This document shows, in pieces, positions 6,119 to 41,207 of a stretch of DNA of 64,000 nt. Numbering within the stretch: the first letter of the stretch is position 1; each line of letters begins with the position of its first letter. This DNA is from Rhizophagus irregularis (lineage: Eukaryota), in the NCBI RefSeq assembly GCF_026210795.1, contig NC_089434.1:2480001-2544000 (forward strand), in the 5' to 3' direction. The notes below the pieces were generated by a model. It saw only the letters and a list, made by a program, of their open reading frames with translations, did no database searches and was not told where the DNA came from. A program made the translations under genes and the position numbers.

Positions 6119-6184
6119 TCCGGGAGGTGTCAGGTGGGTTTACACTTATAATATAAAAAATATAAATTTGCAAGTACAAAATGC

Positions 6185-6962: not shown

Positions 6963-6995
6963 TCGAATGAGAAAAAATAAATATGAACCTCGGGT

Positions 6996-7793: not shown

Positions 7794-7835
7794 CACGGTA
7801 TGTCAGTAAAAAATATACCTACCGGTCCTTAGCAA

Positions 7836-15324: not shown

Positions 15325-17841
15325 TCTATTAGGTAATTCCAGATTTCCGAACTTATCAATATAATTAAATCAATTTATTAAATAGTCTATATTTATAGGA
15401 TCGTATCATAGCAGTAATAGAAGAATCGAACCAGAATTATTAAAAACCATTCAATTCAACTCTCTTCTTGATCAGTTTTCTTCATGCGCCCAAGACCATC
15501 AACATTTATCGACTTGTATCACACTAATTACACCGAAAGAAACTACCGGCAGTCTTGTAATTCATGATGAAATTAATGGAATAGATTACCGGGAATTTTT
15601 ATCAATGTCTAGAAACGTGGAAGAAATGGCCGGAACAGGTTCGGAACCTTTTCCAGGTACTTTTCTTAATCCTAAAAGGATAGACACCAACCTTTCAAAA
15701 GAAGTATTAGATTTGTTGGTTGAATATTACCGCAATGCCTATGGAAAAGATTTCGCAGCACTATCAGATATCCATGCTGCTCCTTCTGCTATACCGGTAT
15801 TACCAAAAGTGAACACTTATGGACGACTAAAAATTGGATCCGAAGTTTTTGGGTCAATGTATTCTAAAAGGCACGTCACATCGGCCAAAATATTATCCCA
15901 ATTTCTCCATGATAATACTAAAGATACTTATCCCGGTATTGTTCAATTTTATTTTGAACATATTATACATTTTCCGGAAGGTTCTGTAAATCATTCCCTA
16001 GCATTTGTAAAGTGGTACCTTCCGGCAGAAAATCACAAGACTAGATTTCATTGCACAATTAATGGCGATGAAAATTTGTGCAATATAGAACTATGGAAAA
16101 AAGAATTTTATGATCTTAGCAGGGATTGTATTATCCCTGTACACGTAGTATACTGGGTCGGTTTGTTGAAGGTTCTTTTTCAATAGGACGAAAAGAAACC
16201 CGGAAATATGTGTCAGTAATACCGATCAATAGAAAGTTTCATATTTAAAATTTATAATAATACTGTAATATCAATCATGTTTTATATTATGAATATTATA
16301 AATATACAAATAAATAAATATATAATAATTATTATTAAACCTTTAAATTTCTCACCGTCTAATATCAATGTTCTATCAGTATTATTATCTGGATTATGCG
16401 ATGTTTTACCGACGCTTATTTATAAATTAATTACGATCACGACAGATCGGGTGTTTATTTATTAGTCATCGGGAAATCCGGAAGGTAATCAATTTGTTAC
16501 TTATTATCAGCTGATCAAATTTGATATACGTTTAGAATCTATCGGCTTCTTATATAATAGAATCAATAGGCCTATCGGGATACTGATTATTTAATGATAA
16601 AAAAAATAAGAGCCGGTTAAGAACCGAAACCTGATTGGTCCCGATTCTTAACTGGCTCTTAATACACCGATTCTTCATCATTTGACCAGTGCACATTCAT
16701 AGCAGTGAGGTGAGGAATACCTAAGTTTACAAAAACTTCCAGAAAGGCGTTAGGCAAACAACCACGGACGAGACTATAAGAAGACCAGTTGTTAGATGAA
16801 AAAGTCCAGCAAGGGAGGGAAGTAACTCTATTAATTGAAGAAGAGTAATCGCAATTGGCATTATCACCCGCTTCTTTAATTTTTTGGGTAAAGTGGTGGA
16901 GATATAACGTTAAAATTTGATGTAATTTAACGCGGTGCTTTTTGCATAAAAATAAATGCATAAAATCTTCTAAGTGGTCTTCACAAGAACGACAGGTTAG
17001 AATCTCTACGTATAAATCAGGTCGTGTCCTTTTCAGTGATTCCAAAGTAGGCAAGTCCTCCAGGAAAAGTTGAAATTTCAACGTGTGATGTCTAGAGACA
17101 TTTTCCTTAGTAAAGGAATTATCAAATTTGGGTTGGAACATTAACGTATGCCAGGTAAGAGCCCAGTCAACCACGTATTGGGATGGATCTGTTAAAAGAG
17201 AAATAAAACGGAAGCGAGAAAGAGCTAAAAGGTCTTTCATATACAACATCTGATGATATTGTTTAAACAAATGTCTTGGGTTGGTTTCACAGACAATGTC
17301 ATCATAAGACATAATATAATCATGAACCGCGGCTAAGGTTACTTGCCGAAACCTGTTTGGCCTAATGCCGAAAGGTGAAACCTCTTATATAGTGCCGAAA
17401 CGCCGAAACGCCGAAACTGCAAAACCTGTCAAAATTGCGAAACTGCCAAAACATGCCGAAACCTCTATAATAGGTTTCTCCGTAGTTTCGGCATAGTTGA
17501 TCATAAGATTTGCATATAGTTACGCCAAGTTACACCAATTAATAATATAATTTAGATGATCAAATAATCTACAGATAAAAGATTAAACTTCAATATTTTA
17601 CCGTCGTCTTAGTTCTTTTAAGCTTTATCTAGTGTTAGAATTTTCATTTCTAACTCCCATATTAATATTATGATATTACACGTTTTTACAGTTTTTTTTT
17701 AAGGGGCTTATATTCATTAAAGGAAAATGCGTAACATGCATTTAATAAACCCAATTCTGTCATCTCCTTTAACACTGAACTAAAGTTTCTTTTACTTTCT
17801 TCCGTTTTCTTAATAATAATATTAATAATAAACTGTTTCAA

Positions 17842-20151
17842 ATGACTGATCACATAGAAGATTCACCCATTAAAATGAAAAATAGAGGAGGTCAGCCACC
17901 TAATAGCATTTGGGAAGATATTAATAAAGGAGAAGCTGTTGGTTCTGGCAAATTTGCCGCCTCCTGCAAGTACTGTAAGAATACATGGTCATGCGGTGAA
18001 GTTTCAAAGCTCGAAAAGCATCTTTCAAACCATTGTCCAGATGCGTCAGCAGCAGTTGTTAGAAGGTATATGACTAAAGTAATGGAACGGCAAGATAAGT
18101 TCAAGTCATCCAAAAAAAGAAAATACTCTGAAGGTCAAAGTAACATGGATGATTACCATGATTCAACAGAGCTTAACGAACAAAGATGTACACGAATTAA
18201 TCGTGCATTAGTTAAATTTTTTATTGCGTGCGGAATTGCGTTTAGAGTAGTGGAACATCTCTTTTTCATCAATTTTATAAAAGAGCTTAATGCCGGGTAC
18301 AATACACCAACAAGGGAAGTATTAGTAAATCAACTACTTGAACGTGAATTAGCTCAAGTGAACTTCAAAGTTAATTCTGAGCTTGAAAAGGAAACGAATT
18401 TAATGTTAGGTTTGTTAAATTAAATAGGCTATCATACGTCATTTTTATTTAATCTTACTTACTATATATAATATTAATTTATAATTTAGCCTTTGATGGT
18501 TGGACATCTGGTACACATCGTTCAATTTGGAACTTCATTGTAATAACTCCGTTGCGTAAAGAATATCTTTATCAACTTTCTGATTTGTCTGAAAATTTGC
18601 ACACTGCAGAATATCTAGTTACGGTAATTGAAAAGGTTATAGAAGGTATTGGAGAAGATTGAATATGTGCTGTAGTTTCCGATAATGCGGCCAATGTTCG
18701 TAATGCACGAAAAATTATACATGAGAATCATCCAAAGATTGAGAATGTGCGATGCGTTGCACATTCTATCAATTTAATTGCATGCGACATCATCAAGGAG
18801 AAGTTTGGGGAACGTTTATTAAAACGTGTTAATATTTTGACAACCTTTTTTAGAAGTTCTCATCAGGCTAATGCAAAACTTGCTCAAATAATTAAAGAAA
18901 AAGGAATTAGTGGAAGAGGATTAAAATTATATTGCAAGACACGCTGGACTACTGCTAGTGAATCCGTAAATTCAATAATAAATTTGGAATCAGCAGTTCA
19001 GCACTAGAAGAAATGGCCAGCGATCACGATAAAGTGCTAACAAATGATAAAATAAAACCGATTATTCAATCGAGAAATTTTTTTTCAAATTTACGAGTTC
19101 TTGGATTTGTTCTGGATCCTCTAAGAAAAGCGGTACTTTCATTAGAATCGAGAAGAGCTACACTTGCAGATTGTTTCCTGAGCTTGGCAAGACTTGCAGC
19201 TACATTAAAAAAGTTACCCAAATCATTAAATCCTGCATTCCAAAGTCATTGTATCAAAGTAATAAATGAAAGATTTGATGAGTTCGATGATGATAAGTAT
19301 ATTACTTGTTTTTTTATGGATCCCAGATTTAGAAACGCGCCACTTAAAAAATGCGCCCTCATGAGAATTATCAATGTGCAGCTTCAATCAGGAAAAATTT
19401 AGGTTTCGACCGTTACGAAGCTGAAACTTTATGTGATCAAATACAGAAATATATTAATGAGCAAGAGCCATTTGACCTAGATATCGGTTTTGCTAAAGAT
19501 AATCCCGTGAATTGGTGGAAATATATTAATACCAAACCAGAACCAGATGTCCTGCCAAGAATTGCAAGTTATCTATTTGCAATATGTCCTAACTCAGCAA
19601 CTTGCGAACGTGGATTTTCGACTTTAGGATGGCTATTTCATAAACGTCGCTTAAATCTTAATGTGGATAAACTAGAATCCATGTGCAAATTAATTTTGTA
19701 TTGGAAATCCAATTCAAAAACTGAACTTGGATTTTATGGAATTGATCAAAAAAAGAATACTCGTCTTAGTGATGATGAGATCAATATACGTATTGCAGAA
19801 GCTTTTGCAGAAGATGACGATGAGGAATATAATGAGGAGCAAGCTTCTACTCAGAGATTAACTACAAGCGGCGAAACAATACCCGAAGACAATTGCCGTG
19901 TAGTAATCGAAAGTCTATGGATTGATCAATTTGTTAATTTATCGCATGATTCAATTACTAGTGAAATCAGCGATATTCCAAGAGATATATTGAATGATTC
20001 AGATGAAAATAATGCGGAAGATGATGAAGTTGATGATAGTGGTAATAATAAGAGACCCGGAGAAGGTGACTATGATTATGATATAGATGATGTATTAGGT
20101 ATGGATGACGGTGATAATAATGACGATAATTATGATGATAATGAGGAATAA
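17842..20151 (+). pseudogene. hAT transposase with BED finger (intron about 18411-18490; stop and frameshifts)
   Basis: CKYC..HLSNHC, FDGW, SDNA, RCVAHSINL, TRWTT and ATCERGFS. Confidence 0.9.
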
Positions 20152-20772
20152 TAATAATGAGAAATAATTACAATAGTTAATCCAATGAGAATTAATTCTA
20201 ATATCATGTGATTTAAATAATGATACTATTTAGGAAATAAATGATGTAATTATGCAGGGCAAAATATTCGCGATCAAAGTCCAGTTAACATATAATTATG
20301 CAGGCAATGCAGGCAATTGTAATTTTATATTATATTTTAAAACATTGCAATTTAATTAAGGAATAAGGATAAGCATATTATATTTTAAAAATAGTGCAAT
20401 TTAATTAAGGAATAAGGATAAGCATATTATATTAGAATCAATAAGTTTTAAGGACTTCGTTAATTAAATTTATTATATTAGATCAATAAATTTTAAGAAC
20501 TGCGTTACAAAAAAAAATTTAGAACTGCGTTAATTAAATTTATTACATTAGAATCAAAACTGTGTTTATTTTGTTACAAATACTTTAATTATGTAGAATG
20601 TTATTATGTTCATCAGTTCATGTTTTAAACATTATAACGAATTTTAAAATTATTATAAATATTATGAAATTTGAATTTTTTTTTCGCAATTCAAAACCAA
20701 ATTGTATTTTAATTTTCAAATTGTATTTAATTTTCAAATTTCAAGTTACGAAAAAAATCATAAAAATAAAAA

Positions 20773-21446
20773 ATGGCAGCATTAGTACCTTTTGTCCCAC
20801 CGCCACCACCAGTATTCCAATGGACGATTAACGCAGCTAGGCAATTAATCGCGGAGCGGAAAACTTACATCAGCAATTCGAAAGAATTGCAAACCGTCAT
20901 CATGTAAATGCATGGACAATAATAGCAAATAGGGTGTTCATTGCAACGGGATTTGCAGCGACACCCAGGCAATGCCAAACAAAATGGAATGCCCTCAAAC
21001 GAGGTTATGAAAACCTCAGTAGGATAATAAATAATAATGATGACGACATTCCTATTATAAGCCCAAATAGTTTCGATAGAGCGTGTTTTGCTGATATGAA
21101 CGATGAATTCTGGTTACAAACCGGTAATTATTATTAATTATTATTTTAAATTAATTTTATTTAGGCAATTCATTCAATTCATTAATATTTTTATTGGATT
21201 TTAGATCTGTTTAGACGACAGTATCGACGGCAGCATGCTGCGCATGATCGACGTCGATATGAATATAGATTGCGAAGGGAAAGAAGAAGGTCGCGATCTA
21301 GGTCTCGATCAAGAAGTAGATCAAGAAGTAGAGATAGAAGACGAGATAGAAGTAGAGATAGAAGACGAGATAGAAGTAGAGATAGAAGACGGGACAGAAG
21401 TAGAGATAGAAGAAGAAGTAGAAGCAGGTCCCCACATAGAAAATAA
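20773..21446 (+). pseudogene. Myb/SANT (trihelix)-like protein with RS/RD-repeat tail
   Basis: WTIIANRV..GF..TPRQCQTKWNALKRGY, intron about 21124-21203, then RSRSRSRSRDRRRDRSRD...SPHRK*. One frameshift near 20860. Confidence 0.7.
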
Positions 21447-24400
21447 AGATATTATTAAATTTTAATTTTTATTATATTTTTAATCGTGTATTTTATTAGT
21501 TTAATATTAAATATTATAAAATAAATATTTACATACAAAAAATCATATTGTCTTTATTCTTATAAATTGTTTAAATGCCAAAACTCTAATTAAATCATAT
21601 AGAAAGTATTGCCGAAACGCCGAAACAGTTTTGGCAAGTTACGGCAGTTTCGTGATTTTGATAGGTTTTGCAATTTCGGCATTTCTTGATGATTTCGCGA
21701 AACTAGTTTTGGCAGTTTCGCGTACGCCATTCTGCCGAAACCCTCTAGTTTCGGCAAGCAACCTTAACCGCGGCAAGGTCAAGACGGGAAATAAGAATAG
21801 CATCGTCAGATGTATGGGCAGTATTGGCAAGAGAATCAGCGAAGTCATTCCAATAAAAATTAGAGTGAGCTTTAACCTTATGAGGTAAAACTGAAAGTTG
21901 TTTATCCACAATCAGTTGTTGAATGATGGCCCAAAGTTCAAAATTGGTAGTCTTATAATAAAGACGAGAATTTGAATAATCAGATAAGAAACAATGTTTC
22001 AAACCCTCGATGGAAGACTGTGAATCTGTATAAATGTGAACTACGGAGTTGGCAGGAAAAGCTGATAAAGCTGCATAAATAGCAGCAGCTTCAGCACGAG
22101 AAGAAAAAGGCCAATCGTGAATAATACCCCGCTTATAAGTGGCAATAGAATTAAGAAAGCCCGAATCTTTGACAATTTGAACCCAGCCCCATCCCATAAA
22201 AACATCACTAGTTCCTAAATTAATGAGAGAACCATCAGTGTAAAAGGTATATTGTGAGTCTGAAGAAGGCACAACTGATGATGAAGCAGCAACATCGCCA
22301 GCCGTAAGTAAATGTGGAGTAGGCAAAGCCTTGTCGACAGTATCAGAGGAAGTATGGGGAATATCAGCAGCAGGCATCAAGCGAACTGAAGGATTGCAAA
22401 ATGAAGTTACAAAATCCAAGATTTCCGCCCACGACACCGTAGCAATCAAGCTGAATGTGTGATTCAAAATGGATGATTTCTTCATAGGTAAGATCTATGA
22501 CTGACGAAGAGAGGCTGAATAAGAGCAAGAAACAGAACCAGTAGCAACTGATTTCTTTGAATAGGAAGATTTGTGTATATTTAAATTGCAGCCAGGACAA
22601 GGTTGTAGAGTAATCAAATCGCTCGGACGAGATAAGCAGTCTGAAATCCAATGTACAATGGTACAAGTGGTGCGTTTGGGTTGGATCTAGATCTGTTTAC
22701 CGAATAACGGAAGGCCATTATCATTCATCGTGACAATCCAATTCTTCTTATAACCAGAAGGAGGAGTGCAAGGAGCAAGTTCTTTTGCAATCTGGCTCAC
22801 AGGTCGTTTGTCAATCATAAATCGGTCTTTTAACAAACCAGGTTGATCTGGAATCGTAATATTAGCAAAAAGATTTTTGTACCAATTGGAAAGACGGGCA
22901 TTACCACGCTTTTGAACAGAATTAGCATATATAACAGACCAGGAGAGCAAATGTGTTCCTTGAGGTGTCAAAAGTTGCGAAAGGTAAAAAAGGCCACGTT
23001 TTCGAAGTCTTGTTAAGTTGGCTTTAAATACATCCAAAGAAAGACATTGATAAATGGGAGTATGACCATTGGGGTAGGTTAAATCAGGCACAGACGATAA
23101 ATCAGCGCGTGACAAATGGAAGGGAGTCGAGAGTAGTGAGGCTAAAGTATTGGCGATATAATCTTGTTTAAAAATTAATAAAGAAGACCAACAAGTCCAG
23201 TCCAAAACCATCAAAGGAGAAATAGGAATTAAACAATAAAATTGAATAAATCGCAACCTATAATTAAAAAGTGATTTCATAAAAACAGAAGAAGAATTTG
23301 CTAACAAAAATAAATTAGTAAAATGATTTTGTTGTTGAAATGAAAATAAATTGATCAAACCCAAAGCATGAGTTAAATATAACACTACATTAGGAACAGA
23401 ACGTGATAATTTGACCTTGTGTTTAACTAAGGCACGAACTGAAGAAGTAATAGTGGAACATTCAGCCTCAGATAAATGTGTGACTTGCATTTGATAATCC
23501 AATTTCAGAATCAAAACAGTATTATAAAGATACACCACTTGTTGAACAGTCAGTTTCGCAGGGCGAAGAATTGCAGAGAAAGAATTACATTCTCGCTTAA
23601 GTTATTGTCGAACAAAGTTCCTAGAGCCGTTAATGTTGAACCAAACTCCTAAAAACCGGAAAGATGAAAACATAGGAATAGGAGTAACAGTAATGTTGGG
23701 CGTAGAGTTGAGCGATGAAATTGACAAATTAAAGGCTATAGGAAACAAATCTCGAGAAGCAGCAACTGCATTGGTGGCTAAAACATATTTGTTATGGTTG
23801 GCTGAGGTATTGTTTAAACAATAAAATTCTTCAGTAATAGACAACATATGTTCCATTCCTTCTTTAGAAGAAGAGATCAAAGTAGAATCATCCATGAACA
23901 CCAAATTATTAATTTCTAAAACATTCAGAGAGCAAGAAATTGATGGAGCAGTGTAGGGAGCCAATGGAGAAACCAAACAATAAGAGTCTTTCTTCTCATT
24001 TTTGAGAGTTGTAAGCAGAGGGTCTAAATAAATAACCTATAAAAGCGGAGAGATAACTTCACCTTGATCTATTCCAATTTTAACTCTATATGGTGGAGTA
24101 GGGCCATGTGCAGTAATGACACGGTTAGAACGTGACATAAATAAAGAAAGTAAAAATTGAATTGCATTTTGAGGCAAACGTAAACGTTGAAGAGCAAAAC
24201 GCAACATAGATAAATCTACAGAGTCAAATGCTTTTGAAATGTCTTGAGAAAAAATCCACAAGGGTTGTTTAGTGACTACCGAATCATAGATAATGGATTC
24301 CAGTGTAATAATAGGATCACGGCAGGAACCTCCAGGTAAACCCGCGAAATTACCACCTTGGAAAATATGGTGGGAGGCAAGCAAAGGAGCCAAACGATTA

Positions 24401-27400
24401 TAAAAAAGTTTAACCAAAGCCTTACGAATCACCTCAAATAAAGTAATAGGACGTGTATTTTTAAGTTGGCATTTCCATTCATGCGGTTTAGGAATAGGAA
24501 AAACAGTAGCTTGTCTCCATAAATCGGGAATATTTGCTTCTGATAAACAGGCACAAATTAAATTGAAAAGCAAAGTAGAAGCAGAAGGACCTAGGTGTTT
24601 CAACATCTCATACGAGATCATAGAAGGACCTGAGGCTTTGTCATTAGGCATGGAGGAAATTGTTGAGGACCATTCATCAAGGGTAGGAGGATCCATTAGT
24701 GAATCAAAAATAGCTGGAGAAACATCAGCAAGTGGTGCATAAGCGTTAGACCATCGTTCAGGCAAATCCTGTATAGAAGAAGGAGTAGTAGAAGTAATTG
24801 GAACAAAATTTTGAAAATGTTCAATAACTTCTTGATCAATAGCATCTGGAGAAGTTAATAAAGTGGGTTGTGTTAGATGATCAATGAAAACACGATCAAG
24901 AACAATTCGTTGTCTGGTTCGTGACAAAGCAGAATCTATAAAAGTGGAAATATTATTGGTAAAGTTATCATTCCGAGCATCAATTTTAGCCTGAATAGAA
25001 GAGGCTTGAAATTCTTTTTCTTTTAGCAAAAGAAGACTTCGCAAAAGCAAAGTCATATTTTCTAGGGTTTGGAGTAAATTGGCAAAATCATCAATTCTTG
25101 CATCTCGAAGAAAGGGTGGAAAAATAATAGGTGTAACAAAGGTTTGTTTATAAAGGGATAAAATATTATTAAGACGTATATAATATAAAGACCACTTAGT
25201 TTCATGATGCATAGAGTATGAGATAGGGGTCTTATGAAGGGAACGGATAGTTTTAGCCACTTTGGACAAAAATCTATAAGACTGGCATAAACTTTCCAAG
25301 GCTTTAGGCTTCTTTGGAATATAAGTATTGCCCACAGTAACTGAAGGCAATGTGGAATTAGCAGCTTTGATAATCCTAGAATGAAGATATTCACATTTCT
25401 GATTGAGAGGCCAAGCGTCAAAAACAAGTGGATCAATTGGACATAATTTATCCAAATTATCAGCAAAAGCAGTCCATTGATCAGCAGAAATGGAGTCATA
25501 TTTGAAAACACGTCGAGTATTACGACCAAGTTGACGAACTCGTGCAGATTTAATAGCATCTGATAATAACGAAGCATCAAAATATGTAATAATAGGGTTA
25601 TGATCTGAAATGTGTAAATCGTGAGCATCAAAAATAGAAGCTGTTAACATATATTGGCGAAGAAGTGGACAAGACCAAACAAAGTCGATACGGGTAATAG
25701 TGTCCAAATGGTGATAAGTACCTAAGGTACCGGATAAATTAAGGGGGGTGCAATCCTCGTAATTATGAGAAAGCAAATAATGAAATAATTTGTGAATTCG
25801 TTTAGCAGCAACCTGAGGTTGATGCAGAAAGATAGGGTAATATTTATCCAAATTCATATTAAAATCACCGCAAATAGCATGGTGAAAATTTTGTGAAGAA
25901 GTTTGGGAAATTAAAGAAATTAATTGATCAATGACTTCATAACGAAGAACAAGATCATTTGTAGGGGGAATGTAGACGACAAATATACGCAATTTAACAT
26001 TGCCTTTAAAAAACAAGTCTACAGAAAGAATACGGGAGGAATGGGATTGATAAAATTGGACATGAGTGGCTAAAGAGTTATGTATAAATAAAGAAACACC
26101 ACCAGAAGAGCGGCCGTGTTTGGTGGAGTCCAAATCAGAATGAAAAGAAGTATAATCACAAACTCGTTTAGACAAAAATTTCATTTATTTAGGCGATAGG
26201 TGTGTATCAACAATACCGCCAAAGGAAACGTAATTTTGTAAAAAGAAAGAAGAAATTTGGTCCATTTTAAAGGAACCTTGACCAGGAGTTTTAAGACCAT
26301 TAACATTAAAAGAAGAAATGTTAAAAGAATTGGGAATGGGGGAAGTAGAGGAAGAGGAAGAAAATAAAGTAGCAGATAAAGGATCATTAAAAATATCACT
26401 AAAATCAACGGGGTTGGGGGGATTTCGCACAAAGGTATCATAATCTATGTGGTCATTCATCATTATAACACTATGATAGAAACTGCGGGGTGAAAGAAAG
26501 GGATAACAAATTAATCAGACGAAGTCATATTGACTAAGTCCGAGGAAGAGCCACCAGAAATGGAGCTAATAAATCTTTCAATGGAGCCAGATAAGTGATC
26601 AAATTTGTTATCTAAAGAGCGTTGAAATGAATAAATTTCAGCACGTTCTTTATTAATAGCAGCTTCATTAGCATTTTCGGAGATGGGGGAAGAAGAAATG
26701 GTGGAACGGGGAACAGGAACCGTTGGGGGAGGGAGAACCGAGCCGGAAGTAAGCCTGTTCGAAGTGGACGGGTTAGATTGTGTTATATAAGGGGGGTGCT
26801 TTGATGATTGTCAACAAGCATATGTGAAGAATTATTGGGATCAGGTGAAAGAACATCGTCCTGTAGATGCCCAAAAACATGACGTTCCAGCCGAGACATC
26901 CTCTGATCAGCTAATTCAAGAGCATGAATTCTAGTACGTACACTAGCCATATCTTCTTGAAGGCTTTTAAGCACCGAAAGGATCTCTTGAATTTGGGAAC
27001 AATTAGGATCCACCAAGGAAGGTTTGTGGCCAGTCGAGTTGGGAGTAACAATGTTATTACGTTGAGAAGTTGAAAAGGAAACTGAACGGTCTTTGCCTTT
27101 ACGTTCATTAGATCGAGGTCGTTGAGCAGATTGAGTAGAATTACGGAAATTAGAAGAATTAGGCGAAGAAGCATTATTGGTGGTATTGTGATTCCGTTCA
27201 GCATTTTTATCTGGATGGTTACGTTGTTGAGAATTAGAACGATCATTGGATTGAGAACGGGAACGATGTCTACTGCGATTAGCAGAAGAATTATTATTAT
27301 TAAATTGACCAATATTGAAACGTTCTTTCAAGTGTGCTACAGGATTGCGAGTGCGTGAGCGACCTCGAGAGTTGTTCAATGGGCATGCAGTAGGAGCGCA

Positions 27401-28384
27401 GCCAAGTTTGCCGCATCTGTGGCAAAGCTTGTTCGTATTTTCCGGAAGTTCCCACTGGAGTCGATGACCTTGCAAGGCGATTGATTGTTCCATTGCAGTG
27501 TCCATCATTTGTTGCGATTTAAAAGTGATGTAAGCCCATCGTTTAGGTTTATAAGAATTAAGAGACAGGGGATATTAACAGCCATAGCACCAACTGCTCG
27601 TACCAAGGGTGCTAAATGCACATCTTTTGTGTTAGGAGGGAGCTGAGATAAAACAGCAACGAATTCACGTCGCGATTTCTTTTGATCGGGTAAAGGAGCG
27701 TGTATAGTAACGTAAACAAGTAGAATAACAATAGATCGCCCACTGTTTATCCATAAAATGTTGGATGGAGGAGACATCATCATAAACGATACGAGCTTAT
27801 TGGACTTTAGCAATAGCACGTGTATGAAGGCGACAGGACTGTATGTTACCATACTTTTTGAAAAGAGCAGTAATATCATCTTTCTTGATGAAAAACGGGA
27901 TGTCAGTAATTTGAATTGCCCAGAGATCTTCATCAGTTCGGAGTTGTTGAGGGTCATGTAGAAAAAATCGGAGATCGGCAAGATCATCATGTTGGAGAGA
28001 AAGGCAGGCGTCACGTTCAGTAGTTGAATTAAAATGAATGACTAATCTTTTGAGGTCACCAGAACCAGACATGCGAGCACGGCCAGTGTAGGAGTGATAA
28101 CATCGGGAAATTTTTTAAGATGCAGAACTGCGGAGATCTGTAAAATTAGCAGATCTCCGCATTTTTTTTGTGAATTTATGCGGAAGTCTGCGATTTTGCA
28201 GATTTCTGCTTTTTATTTTTTACAAAATTATGCAATAATCTGCAATTTTGCAAGTTTCCGATTTTTTATGTATGCATTTCTGCGGTAATCTGCGATTTTG
28301 CAGATTTCCGCTTTTATTTTTTACAAAATTATGCAATAATCTGCAATTTTGCAAATTTCCGATTTTTTATGTATGTATTTCTGC

Positions 28385-28628
28385 TAAGGTTGCTTGTCTA
28401 AACCTCTTCAAAAACCTACGATTAGTTTCGTCAAAATTTTACTATAGATTTATTATAGTTTCGGCAGAGTTTCAGCAGTTTCGGCATTTATAATAAGTTT
28501 TAGCAGTTTCGCCTTTCTCCAAAGTTTCGCCAGTTTTTTAATATAACTTTAATATAGTTTCGGCAGAATTTCGCTTTTCGGCGAAACGCCATCTTGCCTA
28601 AACCCCTAGGTTTCGGCAAGCAACCTTA
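28385..28628. mobile_element. 244-bp hAT MITE, second copy
   Basis: Near-identical to 7309-7552, with TSD ATTTCTGC. Confidence 0.95.
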
Positions 28629-28937
28629 ATTTCTGCGGTAATCTGCGATTTTGCAGATTTCCGCTTTTATAACTACTATATTACTAACTGAAGAAAACTC
28701 TGTACTAATACTAACTGACGGAAATCATGAGATAAATTGCTATTTTTTACAGTTTGTTTAATTGCTTTAATTTACTAGCAACCCGTAAGATATCATACTA
28801 TTAAAGACTTCCTCTTTTTGTCGATCTGAAAGGCTTTTCATAAAACTAGCGAAAAAAGCTAAAGTGGCGTTTTAGATATACTGTATGGATGATGAAACGT
28901 CATTTTTCTTTATTTAATACAATTTTATTTTGAAGAT

Positions 28938-31900
28938 TTAGAACATATATTTATTTAACAGAAAGCAATTTTCTTTGTTAAACCTCGGAATTATATGAAC
29001 CTTCTGATTGATAGATTCAACTGGAATAATGTTATATTCTTCAGTATAGTATAATTGGGAATAACCATAGACTATAGGCTCTATTGGATGAATGTCAAAC
29101 CAACGAACAAGAGCAAGTTCGTATGGCTCTTTATATGATCCTCGAAAGAATTTTAAAAATAGCAATACCTTAAAAAGAAATAATTTGTAAAGAACTACGA
29201 AGTAAAATCGTACTTACGAATTTTTAAAGTTCACTTACTTTTCCGTACCAAGCACCTTCGTCTTGTCCTTGATCCTCCGCATGAGTTACTGCGACATTGC
29301 TAAACCATTCTTTTCCTTGAAATTCACCCGTTGATCTTAGAATTTCTCCACTTTCTAGATGAACTGAATCATAAATTTTGATAAAAAAATCATTTTCTGA
29401 ATCTTGCGAGGATGTGTCTAAAAAAGTATCCAACGCTGTAATTATTTGTGCCAATCCTTCAATATAATTTGGATGTGGCGGATTTTCAGATTTTTTTAAA
29501 GATTTTATTTTTTCATCAATGGAGTCTAGATTTAATTCCCAAAGAATTTTTCCAAACCCTTCGGTTTTACGATGAATGACTTTCATGCCACTGGTAGTTG
29601 GAGTTAATTCTTTACGCTTTACCTGCAAAAATATTAATAGTTTAGTATTTATGGTTGGAGAAAAGTTAAAAAAATCTTATAAAACTTTTACTAACAGCGT
29701 TCACCAGTTGTTGCATCACGTGTTTTCTATTTGTTGCTCGATATGGAATTTTAATATATAATTTATGGAGCGTTTCGTAAGTCTCCGTTGATAGGCCATT
29801 CAGTGCACCATATTTGACAATGGCAGGTACTGAAATAATTAAATTAAATTAAAATTTGTATAAATTAATAGCCATCTTCAAATTATATTACCTGCATGAT
29901 AACGCCAACTATGCAGCTTTGGAAAACTGCAATCCGTAGTAGATAATGGGGAGAATATCCTTTTAAACTCTATGCACCAATCAATGATTGCTTCCTATTT
30001 TAGTTAGTAGTTAGATCATCTATTAACTTTTAAAGAAAGTTAATTTTTTTAAATTTTTTCTTCTTACTTCAAAGATATTCAGTTCATTTTCGGTATATGA
30101 TTCTTGTCTGCTCATAGTATACATTTTATTAAACTTCGTGTAAAGTTCACAAAGTTCTTTATAAGTTATTTCATTTTCTTCGCTGAAAATTTCATCCAAA
30201 GCAAAAATCGCTATCTTCATAATATGACGATAGTTTGATGCTGTCATTACTTTTAGTTGACCTACTTTACTTAACAATTTAAGGCCTGGAAAACGTGGAA
30301 TTTGTTGAAGACGTTCGTCGAAAATCTTCTGTAATTCCAACCCTCTGACCTTTTTTAAGATTTCCTGCGTAAACTCCAGTTGATATTTAAAAAGTCCAAG
30401 GTCGATATGATGCATACGGTCGGGAACGCACACTTCGTAAATATTCAGATTTCTGTAAAAAAATTTATATATGTAAAAAAATTTTTACAACGTCGTCATT
30501 ACTTATAAAATTTAGTGATATTTACGGAAATTCCCAGAAGGCATTTTTGACGTAATGTACAGAATACTCCTTTCCTTGTCCAGCGCTAACCATTTCCTTC
30601 ATATTTTCATGAGTTCTGGAAAGTATATCTTCTCGTGTAAGTTTCATATCGTTTAAGTTATTTTGCAGAACCATACAAGTATGGCATGGCATTTTACATC
30701 GCGCTCCTTTATATGTAGCGGTCACATCATCTGCTTCGAGCATATCTGCGAGAAAAAAAGAAATTCGTGCAGCAAATGTTTTCGCTTGTCCATTAATCCT
30801 AAAACATAACGTATCAGGTTTCTCCAGTAAAGGCCAAAGCATGATATTAAAGCATTTGTAAAATATTTCACGCTGCAAACTTCAAAAGACTTCGGTAGTT
30901 TTAATGCCTGAATCTTGAACTTTAGGCAAAAAACCTAAAAGTATTTTAGATTCTGGTAGGTTTCGAACCCAATTTGGAACATTTCCAAGCGTTAAAAATA
31001 CTGGATGGCCTGATGTCTTGCCCAGTCCATCGAAAGTGGTCCCATCTGAATATAAGATGATAGACAATAGGTGATTTAATGGCGGAAGAGTCTTCTCCGT
31101 TTCCAGCCACCAGTCGCCTTCATATGGCTCACCAAACACTCTTGTTTCGCTTCCATCATCCTAAGAATATAAACAACCAAAAATATGAGTGATGATCTTC
31201 AGTTTCTTTTTAGTTATTCATAATTATTAAATTTACCCTTTTTTTCTTTAGAATTCCCTTATAGACAAAATTATTAGCTACTTCTGGTCATTGCAGAAGA
31301 GCTTGAATAGCGCGAAATATAAGACGATAGTAGAGTGTAATGTCAATACCGCTGTAGGTTGAAACAACTTTTTCTTTGAAGTCTAATGAAGGTGAAGTTA
31401 TTTGATTGAGATGGTCTTTGCCATTTTTGGTTGATTTCGGTAATGGAGATTCTTCCAGATTGCTATATTTATTAAAGAATTTAATTATTTGATCTCCAAT
31501 TTTGTTAGATATATTACCCTCTACAATTAATCTCATGAAATCTCTGTATGCATCGTTTGGCCACTTTGCTACGCGTTCTGGTAGATTTTTTCCTTCAATA
31601 GCATCTAAAGCATCATCTAACGATGCTCCTTCAAGATCTTCAGGATCTAGATCAATGTTGTCGCATTTACTGGTATTTCTGTTCCCAACTCCTCAAAATT
31701 TTCTTCAAAAATTTCTTCAGCTCTCTCTTCTATATTTTCTGATTTTGATCTTTTTCGCAGATTATAACATGGTTCAGATTCTAAATTGTCTGCATCTTGA
31801 GTTGGAATTTCGTTGATTATTATATCCTCCATCTCACCAATATTATCATCTTGGTATGTGGATTTTTCATGCGAAGTAAATGTATCTGGCATTGTAATGG

Positions 31901-32099
31901 GTGTATTCCATAACTGAACATCATGTTCTGGCATAACCGCTGTTCTTGATGGTTGTCGCGAGAATCTTTGAACGTGTTCACTTGGTTCACTTGGTCGAGA
32001 AGTTGTTGTTCTTCCATGGTGTTTGGCATTAGCGTGCTGTCTCAAACCGCTGGGAGTTGAAAAATATCTCTTGCAAATTTGACATTTATATCTGACCAT
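28938..32099 (-). pseudogene. Plavaka transposase with N-terminal C2H2 finger, multi-exon
   Basis: CQIC..H..KH, WW..E..LP..IILYSDGT..HPVFLTLGN, ADMLE, PDRMHHIDLGLF and KLHSW. Confidence 0.85.
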
Positions 32100-32359
32100 T
32101 TTTCTTTAGAAATCAATGCGAGTTTAGAAATTAACGCAGGAAAATTTTTTTGATAGTTTCACGCGAGAAATATTTATGAAGATTTACTTTTGGTATATTT
32201 TTTTTTTACTGATTATCAAGCGAATATAAATTTTACTGATAATTGATTATTTTTGTTTACTGAAAGATAATTAATTTATTTACTGATTAGTAATTAATTT
32301 TTTTCATTTACTGATATTTTTAATTCGGGAGTAACTGATTTTTTTACCAATTCATTAAC

Positions 32360-32680
32360 AATTAATTTATTTAATTTACTGATCCTTAAATATATTTTAA
32401 TTCAGGAGTAACTGATTTTTTAAAAAACTTCCGGCAAAACTTTTAACCTTACACAATTTTTCAATTATTTATAATGTAAGAATTTTTTCATTTTTTTTCG
32501 GTTGGCTGAATCGTCGCAATAATTAATTTATTTAATTTACTGATCCTTAAATATATTTTAATTCAGGAGTAACTGATTTTTTAAAAAAATTCCGGCAAAA
32601 CTTTTAACCTTACACAATTTTTCAATTATTTATAATGTAAGAATTTTTTCATTTTTTTTCGGTTGGCTGAATTGTCGCAT
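32360..32680. repeat. Tandem duplication, 161-bp unit, between the divergent Plavaka genes
   Basis: 32360-32520 is repeated almost exactly from 32521. Confidence 0.9.
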
Positions 32681-32801
32681 ATTTTTACATTTATATGAAT
32701 CTTAACAATTTTTTTTCAATTTTTCGAATTAATTGTTGTTTGAATTTTTCTCCGCAATATTTTTCCTATACAAATTTTACGAATTTAGAATTTAAGTGAT
32801 T

Positions 32802-34611
32802 ATGGCGTCTAAAAGGTCAAAAAATGCAAAAAACTCAAAAAAAAGAAAGCAAGCACTTGACGTTCCTGAAGGACAAAGAAGAAAACAAGCACTTGACGTT
32901 CCTGAAGGACAGAATGAAAGCTAACAAAATATATTTGCACAAATGTTATCAGGTAGTTAGTCGTCAAGATGCTGATATTTTGCAATTTAACATTATAATT
33001 AACTTTTGCTGAACGCCAACAGTAGAATCTTCAGAAATTCCTAAAGATCAGCGCACAGATCGTGAAAAATCACCTATTGGTCCTTTCGTACTCGTTACTC
33101 TATTTGATGTAGATCGTGGAAGATCTTTAGTTAAATCTGTTTCTTTTACTCCAGCAAATCGTGAGAAATCCTCAACAAATCGCGAGAATTCTTTAGTCAG
33201 GACTGCGCATACTGAAACTTCCGTTTCAACTACATTGACGCCATCTGTAACTCCTATGAGTTATGAAAGAACTTCGAGGACGCCAACTCCCATACTTAGT
33301 CCAATGCAAATTGACCTTGATAAAGAAATTGATTATTATAACGTCGATGACGATGATAACGAAGAACATAATGATAACCGTGATAAAAGTGATACCCGTG
33401 AGCCTTTACCAAAACCACATAATGTAGAGGGTGAACGTTACCTAACTGTGAAAGAGTTTAATTATGCCATGAATGCATTAGATGGAAAGGTAAACGCCAT
33501 CTACAAACTTTGTCGATATATTGGAGATCAGCAACAAAAAAGTATTCAAGATACGCAAAATGTTGCAAAAAGTGATGTATTAAGCGATGATTTCTGGAAT
33601 GTAAGTTAATTAAAAATTATCAACTTGATTTTAATCTAAAGATACTTATAATAACCAAATATCTTCACAGCGCGTTTATAAAAATGTAGCTAAAGAACTT
33701 ATTCCAACGTCTTTATATCCTTCGGATATAGAATACCGAAAGGCTTTAGAAACATATTTATCTAAACATGCAGAACATTACATTAAAAATATTGGGCAAA
33801 ACGCGTGGATTTCTTTATTTTCAGATAAGTTGTTGGCAGAGGTATGTGAAATATTAATAATCGTTAAAAAAAGGTATTTTTTTATATTTATTTAACTTTT
33901 TTTTAGATAAAAACTAAATGCAGAAGCAGGAGAAATGATTTTGCCGCAAGTATCAGGAGTGCCATGTTTTCCGTCTTTGGAGAACAGCGATTGGAACGCA
34001 TAGATAACAATTCTCCTTCTATGAAGATCGCTGAATGGAAACAGAATCAAAAAACGCGTAATGCGTTTTATGAACTTTTCAAAAATCACGATATTCTAAT
34101 GAAAATTGGCCATTCAGTTTTCAAACAGTATAGGGATAAAGAACTTCCTTTTACGCATTGTGCGTATATTTTATCAATATGTGACATCTTGTTAAATTCC
34201 AATAGCTATAGTATTAAGTGTAATGACAAGTCTGTTACGAAAAGAGTCGAATTTTTTCTAGTAAATAATTTTCGCAAATTTTCGCAGTTCTTTTAATCTT
34301 TTAATATTTTACAGATATTAATCTATAATTAATTAACAGCAAGCGTTTAGAAATAAAACGCAAATAACTCCTCGAATAATGGAGGAATTAGCTGAAAAAG
34401 AAGCGAAAGAAGTTAGTCAAAGAACTGATCAATACGAGTCAGCAGTCGCAGAAGAGAGCAGCGATTCAGTTGAAAATGAAAATTATGATGATTTTGTAAG
34501 TTAAAGTTATTATTTATGTTCGATTATACACTTAATTGAATTATTTTACTAAGCTAAATCATCATTTTTTTTTAGATTAATAATCTAGATTCGCAATTTC
34601 CTCAGGATTAA
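32802..34611 (+). CDS. Plavaka accessory gene, multi-exon, unknown function (bounds approximate, possibly pseudogene)
   Basis: ORF segments 33235-33609 and 33964-34296 with GT-AG introns, inside the TIRs. Confidence 0.55.
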
Positions 34612-34980
34612 TTGTATTTCTTTGAAATACTAATTTTTTTATAATTCGTAATTTTATATTTTTTAATTGTATTTCTTTGAAATACTTTAATTTTTTTTAT
34701 ATCATTTTTTTTATATTCTTTAATCGTATTTCTTTGAAATACTTTAATTTTTTTATATCATTTTTTTTTTATATTCTTTAATTGTATTTCTTTGAAATAC
34801 TTTAATTTTTATATCATTTTTTTTATATTCTTTAATTGTATTTCTTTGAAATACTTTAATTTTTATATCATTTTTTTTATATTCTTTAATCATATTTCTT
34901 TGAAATACTAATTTTTTTATAATTCGTAATTTTATATTTTTTAATTGTATTTCTTTGAAATACTTTAATTTTTTTATACT
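34608..34980. repeat. AT-rich minisatellite, about 55-58 bp unit
   Basis: Repeated TATTTCTTTGAAATACT core. Confidence 0.85.
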
Positions 34981-36164
34981 GTAATTCGTATTTTTACGCG
35001 AAATTTTACGTTGCTTTTTTTTGGTAGAAATAAAGAATTGATTATGATTAATTAATATAAATGGACTATAAATTATCATATATTAATTGTATTTTATATT
35101 TCGATTTATTTCAAAGGTTTTTTATTTAAAAATCCGCGCAGAACATTGCTATTTATAAAATCTGCGCAGTTTTTTATTAGAATTTTCCTCTAATGTTTTG
35201 CGCCAGGGTATAAGATCTGCGCAGATATAATTTCTGAAAATCTGCGCAGATCTGCTCCCCAAAAAATTTCCCGATGAAGTTTCCAAAAGGAGATTATTGA
35301 CAGCGTCAATCATAGCCCGATTGGTAGGATATTTTTTAACAAATTCAGGGGAAGTATTAGGCGCCGCAGCAGCCTGATAATCATGTCTAAGAATGGAAAT
35401 AGTGGGCGTGTCAAGGAGAAGAGGAGAAGTATCATTGGTATCCATAATATCCTTATTGGGAGACGCGTTTAAGGGGAAGTTTCTTTGTCTATTGGGGCAT
35501 GTATGGACGTGTCGGTACCAGACGTGACAGAACCATACGCAGAAGGCGCAGTAGGATCGTTAGGAGGAGGAGACGAAAAGTTGTCAGCATTATTTTGTTG
35601 AGGAGGAGTAGTATTACTACCTCCAGCGTCAGCCGCTGAGTCGGCGACGTAGTCTTCTTCCATAGGATTTTCTGGGAGCGTACGGGTACGTTTGGAAGGG
35701 TTGTTTTTATTGTTTGTTTGTTCATTATCAGAGTTCGAAACGTCAGAGCCGAGTCTTTATTTTTGTTTCGTTTGTCTTGACGCTTGGCAGGTCCCCCGTT
35801 AGGGTTATTGCCAGCTTTTTTGTTACCTTTGAGAGACATTTTAGTAGTAAAATAAGAGATGTGTTAGTATGAAGAATAAAAATTTCTTAAGTCACACTTT
35901 CGGCAGATTGGCTTATTTTTCGGGGGGGTTTCAAAAATCGTTTTTTGTAAATATCTCGGCATCCAGTGGTCCAATTTTGATGAACTTTTTTTTATTTTGT
36001 AGAGCTAAATGAGGGCTACAAAATAAAAAAAAGTTCATTAAAATTGAATTACTGGATGCTGAGATATTTACAAAAAACGATTTTTTGAGTTTCAGCAAAA
36101 AGGGGTGTTTTTGGCCAAAAGTCCATTATGACCTTTATATTAGATATCCGGGGTCCTGTACATA

Positions 36165-37534
36165 CTCACCAAATATTACAGTTCCAGGGATTCTCGCTTC
36201 TCTATCATATATCAATGCATTTGGCTTTCCATCCTGTATTAACTGTATATCGAGACCAAGTTTTTTTGCTCATTGTAAGTCGATGAATGTATAGACTCTC
36301 CTCTTATTCTGTCAGAAGAGAATGTTATTACCACTTACCTTAGCACGGAATAATCCATACAAGGCATAACCTCTGTGATCAATAAAGTCTGAAAGTGTCT
36401 AGAATTTGCCCTGTTTGATTGGAAAGTTTGCATTTGATTGTTGAATACTCAGATATAAACTTGTTGCATCGTACTGTCTTCCATAGCCCTTCTACTCGTT
36501 ATCTGCCCAGATTAATCCTCCCATCATTGCATCACTTAACCACTCCGCTTCTATCAGGTCAAGAGGATCATTGGCTGAAATCCCTACACTTAATCGTTCA
36601 AATAACCAGAGAGCCGTTCTTTTGTAAGACCAGTTATAGTATGATAAGTCTATCCCTAGACCAAACTTCTTTGTCACCTGTAAGAAAACATTCCGCTCCT
36701 CGTGGATTCTCTGATATACTTCTTCAAGAGTTTCATATATTTCCGTTTTATGGTTTTTCTCAACAGGAATAAAGGAACGCTTGGAATTCTTACCCTTTTG
36801 AAACTGTCCAATCACGCAAGACTTAACCGTTTTGCCATTGTATATTGTGACTACATTTTTTACTCCATCTTCATGATACACAATGGGCAGATTACACTTC
36901 CTATCTAATTTACTGGGGTGGAGTCTTCCGGGATTTAACGCGAGGGAGTAGTGACCCTCAGACAGGATGAGAGTCGCACATCTATCAGACTTACTCTTAG
37001 AGATTCGGGTAATATCCCCACGATGTTAAGTGCGAGACTTCCTGCGAGTTGTTCGACCCTGTCCATGCATGAAACTGGGATGGGAGCATTACGATTGAGA
37101 CCTAATGCCTTTTTGATATACTCAGGCTTTTTAATTGACTTTGGCATTTTAGAGAATGTGCCGTAGATATATTTTAGGCATTCATACAGGCAATCATTTA
37201 GCTCCCCATTGTATCCTCCTGCGGCCGGTGGAGCATCTCTTATATAAATTATAAATCTTTTGAAATAATTAGGATCTGCGTCGTCTGGTAGTTGTGCTTC
37301 ATCATAATGGTCTAACAGTGAAAAGAGACTTACCGGTTCATTTCCTGATGTCCACCCACTGGGTTTCCAGTTTTCATAGGGAAGTAAAATCTGGAATTTA
37401 TGTGTTAGATACCGGGATTGGAGTCGCTGTCCAAGTCTTGCTATTGCTCCTCTAGAAAATCTTGCGCCTGAATACTGTAATTTTTTGATATCCGGTCTTG
37501 TAGGTAAAGCACAGACATTCTCTGAATAAACCAT
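36165..37534 (-). pseudogene. Family-B DNA polymerase-like gene, N-terminal and central part
   Basis: AMMGGLIW...YDATSLY(L)S...FP, a motif A (DxxSLYP)-like sequence. Stops and a frameshift. Confidence 0.75.
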
Positions 37535-37617
37535 TTGATGTATTTATGAATTGTGTTCAGTTGTAATATAGGTTTTTTATACAAAAAATATAAGATAACT
37601 AAGAAGTGCTTATCTTA

Positions 37618-40201
37618 TTAAAAGGAGTCAATCTTGCTGCATACACGATCAAGATCCTCTTCATTCCAGTCGTCGACGATTCCATTGGCAGTTTCCCACT
37701 GGCGTTCCATCTTGGTCTTTGGACGCTCCTCTGGGATTTCTCGTGCCTTACCCTTATCTGTTCTTAAAGTTTCATAACCAGAGGGGGTGGGGATAATTTT
37801 GGCATCACGATTCTCCTTGTATATTCTTATTATATCTGCGAGTTCTTTACGGCTAGGTGTTTTAGGTAAGTTCCCATTATATTTGATCCAGTCCTTGAAA
37901 CGATTTACTACTTCCCTAAGGTAATACTGGTACTTGTCCTCAACACGTGTTATGGGACATTCCTCTATTTCAAACGCGAGTATATCCCAATCATATTCGT
38001 CTGATATGTCTTAAAACTTGGCCCATAATTCCTTACCTGTATTATAGAGATCATTGAAGACCTAGTTCTTTGAATTCTTGACCCATAGTTTACGATCCCA
38101 TCAGTGTCTTTCTTGCCAAGCCCAGTGTGCTTGAGTACCTTCCTTTGGTTCAGGATCCCAGTCGATTTCTGGTTCTGTGTCAGGTTCTGGAATAAATTGC
38201 TCAGGAGCCAGTTTTACTATTACAGGTTCTGTAGAAGATTTGGAATCCGTGAGGGATTCGGATTTTGCAGAAGATTCTGCAGGTGACTTGGGTTGTTGCT
38301 CAAGAACTGGGTCTGCGGTTGTAGAATCTGAGTCTGATAACAAGTCGTCTAAGACGTCATAGTCATCTGGCTTGGGGGCAGACGGTTTTTTAGGAACTAG
38401 ATCCTCAGCAGACAGCTCCTGTTCTTGGTTGGGTTTCTTGTCAGATAGATAACAGTCTGAGAAGCTATCTATAGGTTCATCAGTGTCTAACTCATTAGTA
38501 TTTTCATCAGCATCCGGTTGTTCTTCCCTTAACTCTTGTAGACGTTCTTTTAAGTGATCAGGCTTGGGTGGAAGCGGTGGAAGAGCCTTGCGAATTACAG
38601 GTACGGGTTTTTCCTTAACAGGTGCAGGTTTTTCCTTAGTGGGTTTCTCGGCAACTAGCTTTACTTTCTCTTGGTCTACTTGCGATTTACTAGCTGAATT
38701 ATATATTTTTACTAAGAATTTTTCTGAAGCTTTGAGGTCGGATGTTAGCTTCTTAGGAGTTTCTGTATCGATTTCTTCTATGTCTATCTCGTCTATTTCA
38801 TGTATCCAGTTTTTGCTGAGGAACTTCTTGTAGAGGTCCTCCCTGGATATGCTGTAGACTCGGGTTGGTTTCTTATCTTTACGAACTAATTTGCTATTTA
38901 TAGCCAACTCATTCGATAGGATTCTAGAAGCGTTTATTTTTAATAGGGGTGAAATGCAATGAGTTTCGCAATATGAAGTATATACCTTATAAAATTCTTG
39001 AACAGGTAGGTAGGTCATATAATTTTTCACTACGAGGTATGTGTCCTTTATAAATTGGAATAGCGGTGGAAGAGTCGAGATGATATGTTCGTATTTGGAT
39101 GTTATCATAGGTGGCAGATTCCCATTGAAGTCTGGGTAAGCATCCGCGATGGCTCTCAAGTAAGCATAGAATGCCTCACTGGCGCCTAGGTATTTCATAG
39201 CGTCACTGAGTTTCTTAAAGTAGTTAGGGTCTCCTTTGCAGGATGGTGATACATCCAAGAACACTGTGCGCCTATCGTCATTCTCCACTCTGAGAGCATT
39301 TTCGTTGGTAAGGACGATGATGGACATAAAGTTCTTGTAATGTGTTGGCGTCTTGTATTTTTCATGGATTTTCATTATATCACTCGTTACTTTATCTTTC
39401 AAAGAGCGATATAGAGAATTCCACTGGCTTTTTTCCATGGGCATTTCCTCGAGAAGAAGAAGAACTTTACCCTATAATTGCCCATTGAAACTTCCAAGAA
39501 TCGTCTGAGGATTGCTAGTCTTATAAACGAGTTGAGTACCTAGGACGCTGCGCTGAATGAAATCTGTTATAATACCTTTGCCCCAACCGACCTTGTCCAG
39601 ATTTTAGGTAGAGAATCGAGTACATCTTCCTTCCAGCAGATACATCAGCTAACCACTTAAATATATACTCAGTGAGATTCCAATCACCTGAACACCAGAT
39701 ATCCTGAATGTAAGAGAAGATAAATTTAACCGCGAGGTGAATTGTAGACTCAAAGGTGGATATCGGACGCAAGACGTGAAGAAATCCCGAGAAGATATTT
39801 AGATAGAGCTGGCCGGTTAAGGATCTGAAGATTCGCTGTTTATGGGGATCACAGGTTGCAATACATACATCAGTATTCTCAACCATAAACCACTTGTAGA
39901 TGTTGAACTCGGTCTTTTGAGAGGGTCCTTGTTTAGGTTGTATGTAGAATGCCTTCGTGATTAAACGGATAAGTTTACCAATATTTTTGTCAATAACGTA
40001 TTTCAAACTTTTACTATCTGGATCCCACCAGAAAACCCCATGAGGATCTGCACAGGGAATGAAATAACTGCAAAGATACCTCTTGGCTTGATCGAGATCA
40101 CTCATACTTTTTGCAGCGATAATAAGCCGTTTAAGCTCATCGATACTGAAGGCTTTCTTTTGTTCACTGAACTTTAGGATAACTTGAGCTTGAGTGGTCA
40201 T
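37618..40201 (-). pseudogene. SF3 helicase (D5/NrS-1-like) with long acidic/Pro-rich C-terminus
   Basis: Walker A SGQGWGKG (after removing a 4-nt insertion), LGSFNG, Walker B LLLLEE, motif C IVLTN and DDRR finger. Confidence 0.85.
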
Positions 40202-40400: not shown

Positions 40401-40625
40401 GTAACAGATCGTAACAAATGTAACAGATCTGGGAGGGTAAAAATAAAACTTTTTCTGAGGGGATGTCCTCTCCTATCTTTCTGAAACATCTGTTACATCT
40501 GTTACATCTGTTACTCCCTTCTGATTCTATCGTATTTTCCTCTCTTTTCCCTTATTTTATCTGTTTTTTAGTATATTTTTAGTAACAGATGTAGTAACAG
40601 ATAGTAACGGATCTTGGGTAACCCC
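40401..40625. promoter_or_regulatory. Iteron-like repeat cluster, putative replication origin
   Basis: GTAACAGAT-type 9-mers: 3 forward (40401, 40411, 40420), 3 reverse (40488, 40497, 40506), 3 forward (40582, 40594, 40604). Confidence 0.65.
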
Positions 40626-41207
40626 GCCCCACAGAGGGGGGATATAGGTACTGTGAGGCCGTGAGGCCGAGGTGAGTGGAGCCTGTGACACATACTACCA
40701 GCCCGACAACTATACCTATTGGATTCAGTTTCACATATAGTAGTAATAAACCAAATGATAACTATTGAATAATTACTTAATTTATTTAAATTAATAAATC
40801 CTTTCAATCCGAATAGCCTAAATTTTTATATAGTTATCAATCGGGTATATGCCCTATTGATTACTAATTTTTGGCTAACCTATTAGCCTAATAGTTACCA
40901 ATAGGGTATATGCCCGATTTTTTAGCTTTCGACCTGTGTTCATAAGTCATATAAATTATATGATATTATATGTTAATACTGAAAAACTCTATATAAGTTG
41001 CAATTAAAATAGGTAAAATCAAAAAACATTATTTCAATCAAAAAAAAAATATACATTATTAATAAATATAATAATTTTAATTATAAACAAAAAATTTCAT
41101 ATTGAAATGGAATTTATTGATGTTGTTAAAATTTTAAATTTGAATTATACATGCTGCCCAAATTATTTTGGAATGCCATAATTATAATTTGCACTGGTCA
41201 AAAACCA

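Follow-up and report, generated by a model that had tools for sequence, protein, structure and literature searches.

A nine-repeat candidate replication origin beside the helicase gene of a mavirus-related element in Rhizophagus irregularis

Here, we describe a 64 kb stretch of DNA from Rhizophagus irregularis (the window) in which the remains of a mobile element carry an SF3 helicase gene, a compact family B polymerase (PolB) gene and, upstream of the helicase gene, a block of short repeats (Table 1). The surviving element is about 6.8 kb long and keeps one end only. This copy is dead, with both genes broken and the far end gone.

Table 1. Features of the element and of its repeat block, in window coordinates.
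Feature	Positions	Strand	Remarks
Accessory region	6119..7838	-	decayed small ORFs, downstream of PolB
PolB gene, 3' part	7839..8318	-	residues 467-626 of the intact L001 relative
Nested insertion inside the PolB gene	8319..36158	none	28 kb
PolB gene, 5' part	about 36159..37534	-	compact mavirus-type family B polymerase, broken; residues 7-469 of the intact L001 relative
Helicase gene	37615..40201	-	SF3 (D5/DUF5906), RFX/Pox_D5-like winged-helix domain, low-complexity tail; broken
Proximal iteron trio	40401..40428	+	GTAACAGAT, GTAACAAAT, GTAACAGAT; periods 10 and 9 bp
Spacer 1	40429..40487	none	59 bp, 59% AT, flanked by converging trios
Middle iteron trio	40488..40514	-	three perfect copies, 9 bp period
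Spacer 2	40515..40581	none	67 bp, 73% AT, 81% pyrimidine; predicted unwinding site
Distal iteron trio	40582..40612	+	periods 12 and 10 bp
Imperfect palindrome	40616..40624	none	GGGTAACCC; tenth GTAAC core
Outer sequence to the inferred element end (~40700-40800)	40626..40775	none	no notable DNA fold, z 0.13

The helicase gene has a frameshift at Walker A and premature stops and matches DUF5906 (E 5e-17); of its 98 homologues most come from Rhizophagus, with identities of 85-99% for the best. Weak Pox_D5 and RFX matches were obtained with the C-terminal domain, whose only PDB hit is RFX5 (E 0.034), and a profile match to phage D5 helicases (95.5%) spans the wing of the winged helix. No primase family was recognised on five full-length homologues. 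Upstream of the helicase ATG, a T run with a AGATCTGCA motif lies at 40259-40281 and recurs in a metagenome locus (L004:56-80), the two being in opposite orientations; it is possibly a promoter or regulatory site.

The PolB gene, which matches PF03175, was modelled on an intact relative (P0099) with a 37-row alignment (pLDDT 67, pTM 0.50; single-sequence model, pLDDT 33). The closest fold to this model is that of mavirus PolB (E 4e-34, TM 0.58, 617 aa) and the best solved structure is phi29; a PDB sequence search with the PolB alignment gave no match. In the alignment, OTU-like positions are occupied by an invariant His and by a Cys conserved at 97% or more, the N-terminal domain is conserved, and motif C reads HTDG, with its first Asp replaced. 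Mavirus PolB itself has been described as a TP-vOTU-palm protein with a remnant exonuclease, lacking the first Asp of motif C and partnered with an S3H helicase (bioRxiv 2024.03.18.585575).

The PolB gene is split by a nest of insertions three levels deep. The outermost is a MITE flanked by an exact 6 bp target duplication (8313-8318, 36159-36164), which is interrupted by LINE-like DNA at an exact 16 bp duplication (8349-8364, 35888-35903), and this DNA in turn carries hAT, CACTA and Plavaka insertions; both duplications are intact. Downstream of PolB, the accessory region includes an F-box-like ORF (6600-6395; 67% match to metagenome locus L001) and a small ORF with an IQ-like motif (7000-7286, reverse strand; weak Pfam match). 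It ends at 6118 in the end of a hAT-like element (DUF659; 3130-6118) that truncates the helicase-PolB element. The target duplication of hAT elements is 8 bp; the two 8-mers flanking this one differ, which suggests a deletion at 6118, and the element perhaps lost its far part by recombination between copies. Capsid, packaging ATPase and rve integrase genes were absent among the window ORFs scanned, as they were from L001 and L003; an integrase could have been encoded in the half that is lost. Further afield in the window, two inverted LINE-like RT/RNase H copies (41140-49860, 91-100% complementary) surround a 200 N assembly gap (46487-46686), and may be a real pair or an assembly fold-back.

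The pairing of the two genes recurs, as helicase and PolB are adjacent in metagenome loci L001 and L003, and their locus tags are neighbours at five places of a single assembly. In L003 both genes are intact and are accompanied by a divergent third ORF on the other strand. Additionally, many intact PolBs of 620-650 aa (54-63% identity; one cluster with 139 members) occur on short soil-type metagenome contigs, possibly as active or free elements of other hosts. Related loci were found neither in viral contigs by helicase or single-PolB scan nor in prokaryotic genomes by helicase alignment or by the fungal repeat pattern.

In genes and host, the element family matches the capsid-less pMVREs of group 1 in Rhizophagus. 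A large capsid-less fungal lineage with DUF5906 has been reported in this group (Wei et al. 2026, PMC13215967), together with 116 co-occurrences of truncated pPolB and DUF5906 helicase, over a hundred complete Rhizophagus pMVRE copies (110 rows) and complete R. clarus pMVREs of mostly 13-15 kb; the Rhizophagus pMVREs among the entries examined are all of group 1. Shared with that group are the truncated pPolB, the DUF5906 helicase, F-box-like accessory genes, the Rhizophagus host and the lack of a capsid gene, whereas the window copy is shorter than the usual 13-15 kb, has one end and shows no integrase. With mavirus and the EMALEs the element has in common a PolB of ~620 aa with matching fold and replaced motif C Asp, an S3H partner and a helicase gene lying 5', but the window copy lacks capsid, packaging ATPase and rve integrase, and no rve lies between helicase and PolB as it does in loci L189 and L191. 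Three virophage-like IMG/VR contigs with a related PolB also encode a helicase, an rve integrase and an ATPase, and one of them capsid proteins; no GTAAC array is seen in them, although contig ends may be missing. Mavericks have also been described as expanded in Glomerales, under the canonical Maverick/Polinton label (PMC11952901). The likeness to these extends to the pPolB base, the expansion in Glomerales and probably long terminal inverted repeats (TIRs); in contrast, the window PolB is short and of mavirus type, the first gene encodes a D5 helicase, and the integrase, protease, ATPase and capsid of canonical elements are not seen in the window copy.

The repeat block is built on the 9-mer GTAACRRAT, of which the pattern count finds 11 matches in the window, nine of them within 40401-40612, against a mean of 3.08 per whole window in 100 shuffles. 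Forward-strand matches start at 40401, 40411, 40420, 40582, 40594 and 40604 and reverse-strand matches at 40488, 40497 and 40506, so that the count bears out the arrangement of three forward, three reverse and three forward 9-mers given in an earlier note on this DNA; the T-rich spacer of that note corresponds to spacer 2, and its distance of 200-420 bp upstream of the helicase ATG (40201, reverse strand) was measured at 200-416 or 200-424 bp. The palindrome reported to follow the repeats is present, but it is imperfect and of odd length, its central base having no pairing partner. The densest GTAAC/GTTAC stretch of the window holds 10 cores per 230 bp and the runner-up 3. The supposed absence of such a cluster elsewhere holds for the GTAACRRAT motif but not for the layout: seven other two-way clusters, made of other 9-mers, lie near 1.6, 14, 15.2, 21.6, 28.2, 35.1 and 56.4 kb, with none in eight shuffles of the window. 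The two-way layout alone is therefore not special in this transposon-rich window. Similarly, spacer 2 is among the least stable parts of the element, only 0.4% of the 40-mers in 36160-40775 being less stable, but is not unusual for the AT-rich window as a whole, where 8.7% of 40-mers are less stable.

The position of the block within the element was approached through summed contig depth, which differs from copy number and in which a step marks the edge of a repeat family. In four runs, depth stays similar from the helicase through the block to 150 bp beyond it, and in all four it then drops by a factor of about 6 to 21 between bins 40524-40774 and 40775-41025. Because the fall lies just outside the block, the block appears to be subterminal. 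A weakly supported joint in two of the four runs, one side of which is only 23 letters long, skips 40332-40434 and thereby removes the proximal trio. From the helicase ATG to the inferred element end there are about 575 bp, and the TIRs of six complete R. irregularis pMVREs measure 642, 665, 285, 862, 637 and 919 bp (PMC13215967); on this comparison the block probably lies inside the TIR of the element, from which it would follow that intact 13-15 kb elements carry it at both ends. No second copy of the block was found in the window, which keeps only one element end, and no TIR was found between the two surviving ends, the far side being cut at the hAT end without target duplication. A stable terminal hairpin was not found at the element end, nor did inspection by eye near 40700-40790 find, in the right orientation, a Helitron end or a Polinton-type terminal hexamer. 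Just beyond the inferred end lies an 80 bp imperfect inverted repeat (40839-40919). Among relatives, the L001 sequence ends at a single variant repeat, 180 bp before its ATG, a distance similar to that in the window. From the metagenome scan came five short loci in which no more than 188 bp precede an intact gene start. The sequences upstream of these genes do not align to the window, and L003 and L004 are too short to include a block.

Phage loci provided a broader context for the motif. A search of viral sequences with an 18-mer of two repeats returned 89 stretches, of which 80 of at least 2 kb formed 31 clusters, and a control 18-mer of the same composition returned 86 stretches, of which 80 formed 60 clusters. 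One filter was applied to both sets, in which ORFs with a Walker A motif within 4 kb were scored for DUF5906/D5/VapE; two test-set ORFs of more than 1500 aa were left out of the Pfam scan. A helicase of these types lies within 4 kb in 9 of the 31 motif clusters versus 2 of the 60 control clusters (Fisher p 8e-4), or in 11 of 31 when two partial ORFs are added; one of the nine strict hits (L024) is probably due to chance. Non-coding two-way arrays occur in 12 of the 31 motif clusters and in 0 of the 60 controls, and the identical 9-mer adjoins D5 helicases of Firmicutes prophages. At each of the 11 motif-picked loci that have a helicase, the array lies downstream of the helicase gene, whereas it lies upstream in the fungal element. 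At 5 of 14 two-way arrays no SF3 gene was present among the scanned ORFs. A DGR or coding-repeat origin of the phage matches was considered and rejected; 12 of the 31 clusters are coding, mostly without two-way arrays. The prophage family of the L051 cluster (L007, L009, L033, L048 and others) has GTAACAGAT arrays at two places ~24 kb apart on the same contig, with no SF3 helicase among the scanned ORFs within 4 kb. In phages L008, L070 and L085, a VapE-type helicase gene borders the GTAAC array on one side and a separate gene for a Prim-Pol with a CHC2 zinc finger on the other.

The converse approach started from the protein. The fungal helicase matched 151 phage and plasmid records, eight of which were examined; five of these eight have a two-way array right after the helicase gene, each with its own motif and mostly with a 9 bp period and an AT-rich gap. 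The array of Vibrio plasmid pMP1 (three reverse, AT-rich gap, three forward, three reverse) has the same 3-3-3 layout as the fungal block. None of the eight carries the GTAAC motif. Among 26 entries, an HMM of the fungal winged helix gave its highest scores (13.8-39.5 bits) to the seven D5-type helicases, from five clusters, that neighbour GTAAC arrays, against -1.7 or less for the eight relatives with other or no motifs; the four VapE-type helicases beside GTAAC arrays gave no score. An HMM of the ATPase ranks them in the opposite order, partly by construction. A further 11 helicases were selected by protein: P4 alpha, plus 10 taken from 30 rows spread across 882. Those with GTAAC-type arrays, four in number, received the top four winged-helix scores (21.0, 7.0, 5.0 and 4.6, against 3.0 or less); only the score of 21.0 is significant, it belongs to a helicase close to the query, and one array, that of L196, is degenerate. 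Taken over these helicase clusters, which are phylogenetically non-independent, the motif appears from sequence comparison to track the winged-helix domain of the helicase and not its ATPase.

We propose, at a probability of roughly 0.55, that the nine GTAAC-core repeats are a candidate replication origin near the inferred element end, bound by the winged helix of the neighbouring helicase and serving a protein-primed polymerase. The helicase would bind the opposed trios through its winged helices, load at the block and open the pyrimidine-rich spacer, and would then unwind the DNA for the predicted protein-primed polymerase of the element. As the helicase comes without a primase, we infer that priming would take place on the terminal-protein domain of the polymerase at the DNA end, 100-370 bp from the block. 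The broader statement that the repeats are cognate sites of the helicase, terminal and internal origins taken together, seems to us clearly probable.

This broader statement would also be satisfied by a free-standing internal origin, where the helicase would open the spacer and two forks would then be started by host primase; the element might thereby be amplified in place within the chromosome. SaPI/P4 origins and the helicases of SV40 and papillomaviruses work in this way. The motif and winged-helix evidence is common to both models, the layout is typical of internal two-way origins (PMC9371898), the block lies 100-370 bp inside the inferred end, and the window holds no second copy. We nevertheless regard an internal origin as unlikely, in view of a partner PolB of the protein-primed mavirus type with its conserved N-terminal domain and OTU-like Cys/His pair, the absence of an encoded primase, and published TIRs of the family that are long enough to contain the block (PMC13215967).

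The subterminal position would equally suit binding sites for another protein of the element, such as an integrase partner, a terminal protein or a small DNA-binding ORF product, with sites that serve integration or end pairing as the subterminal repeats of DNA transposons do and a likeness to phage arrays that is convergent. Consistent with this are the seven similar two-way clusters in the transposon-rich window, the 5 of 14 phage arrays without a nearby SF3 gene, the one prophage family with arrays near both contig ends, and the different motifs of the closest protein relatives. Such sites would, however, leave unexplained both the enrichment of SF3 genes beside the motif and the top winged-helix scores of GTAAC-linked helicases, and retroviral-type integrases are not known to use other than short terminal sites; we consider this reading quite improbable.

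With the block directly upstream of the first gene and every core near an RFX half-site, which GTAAC resembles, the repeats could also be promoter elements through which a host RFX-type factor controls the helicase and PolB genes. Over 40200-40800 neither strand contains a full X-box; an RFX-like domain is part of the helicase that the element itself encodes, and bacteria, which lack a host RFX, carry the same arrays, so that we give a host promoter little credence. That the block is an unrelated MITE or small insertion, as a window full of nested insertions might suggest, is hardly credible given that no inverted ends or target duplication bound it, that coverage runs from gene to block at a similar level without a spike such as the MITE at 36.0-36.2 kb produces, and that the variant repeat of L001 is about equally far from the ATG of that locus.

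The candidate origin near the element end can be set beside the iteron origins of SaPI/PICI, P4 and small plasmids. SaPI-type origins have opposed iterons around an AT-rich region and are internal and two-way, and it is with a C-terminal winged helix that SaPI Reps recognise these iterons (PMC9371898). As in those origins, the fungal block has opposed iteron groups, with two or more iterons flanking the AT-rich spacer on either side and a 9-10 bp period, and is linked to an SF3 helicase with a C-terminal winged helix. In contrast to them, it stands near the element end in a eukaryotic host, and its helicase is partnered with a protein-primed PolB; there is no primase gene or domain, fused or adjacent, the neighbouring gene being PolB. 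The iteron reading and the SaPI/P4 likeness put forward in the earlier note are thus upheld in part. The same 9-mer in two-way arrays beside phage SF3 genes, its apparent tracking of the winged helix and the opposed iterons speak for them, but no primase domain is recognisable in the helicase and the block is upstream of the gene and not downstream, as in SaPIs. For such an upstream array P4 ori1 offers a precedent, as it lies upstream of the alpha operon, the annotated P4 crr with its 9 bp spaced repeats being downstream of alpha. Beyond the scope of the earlier note are the pairing of a mavirus-type helicase with a protein-primed PolB in one replicon and the location of the block near the inferred element end.

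Both the element family and the origin type are already known. In a search outside which most subscription papers fell, including the first mavirus and Maverick papers, no description of a mavirus-type or Polinton-type element was found to report an iteron array. The available main text of PMC13215967 contains no mention of iterons and no description of an origin, and the word 'iteron' was likewise not found in the available text of PMC8547959. As to the role of the SF3 helicase in mavirus-type elements, one review states that it likely unwinds DNA (bioRxiv 2024.03.18.585575).

The block addresses the questions of why a protein-primed polymerase needs an SF3 helicase and how replication of mavirus-type elements starts. 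Because the DNA target is short and well defined, and a domain predicted to bind it is available, the role of the helicase can be tested by gel shift, and the block offers a first handle on the copying of a family with over a hundred complete copies in Rhizophagus. It also provides a clean case in which a DNA motif appears to track a winged-helix domain across bacteria and fungi. More tentatively, and with somewhat less than an even chance, the fungal mavirus-related elements could be hybrid replicons, combining an iteron origin in each TIR and winged-helix loading of a primase-less SF3 helicase with an exonuclease-less protein-primed polymerase; the winged helix would be one in common with Firmicutes prophage helicases that use this 9-mer. 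If so, the S3H helicase of mavirus-type elements would do more than help with unwinding and would act as an origin-binding initiator, and a recognition pair of protein and DNA from bacteria would have been carried over into a high-copy eukaryotic element.
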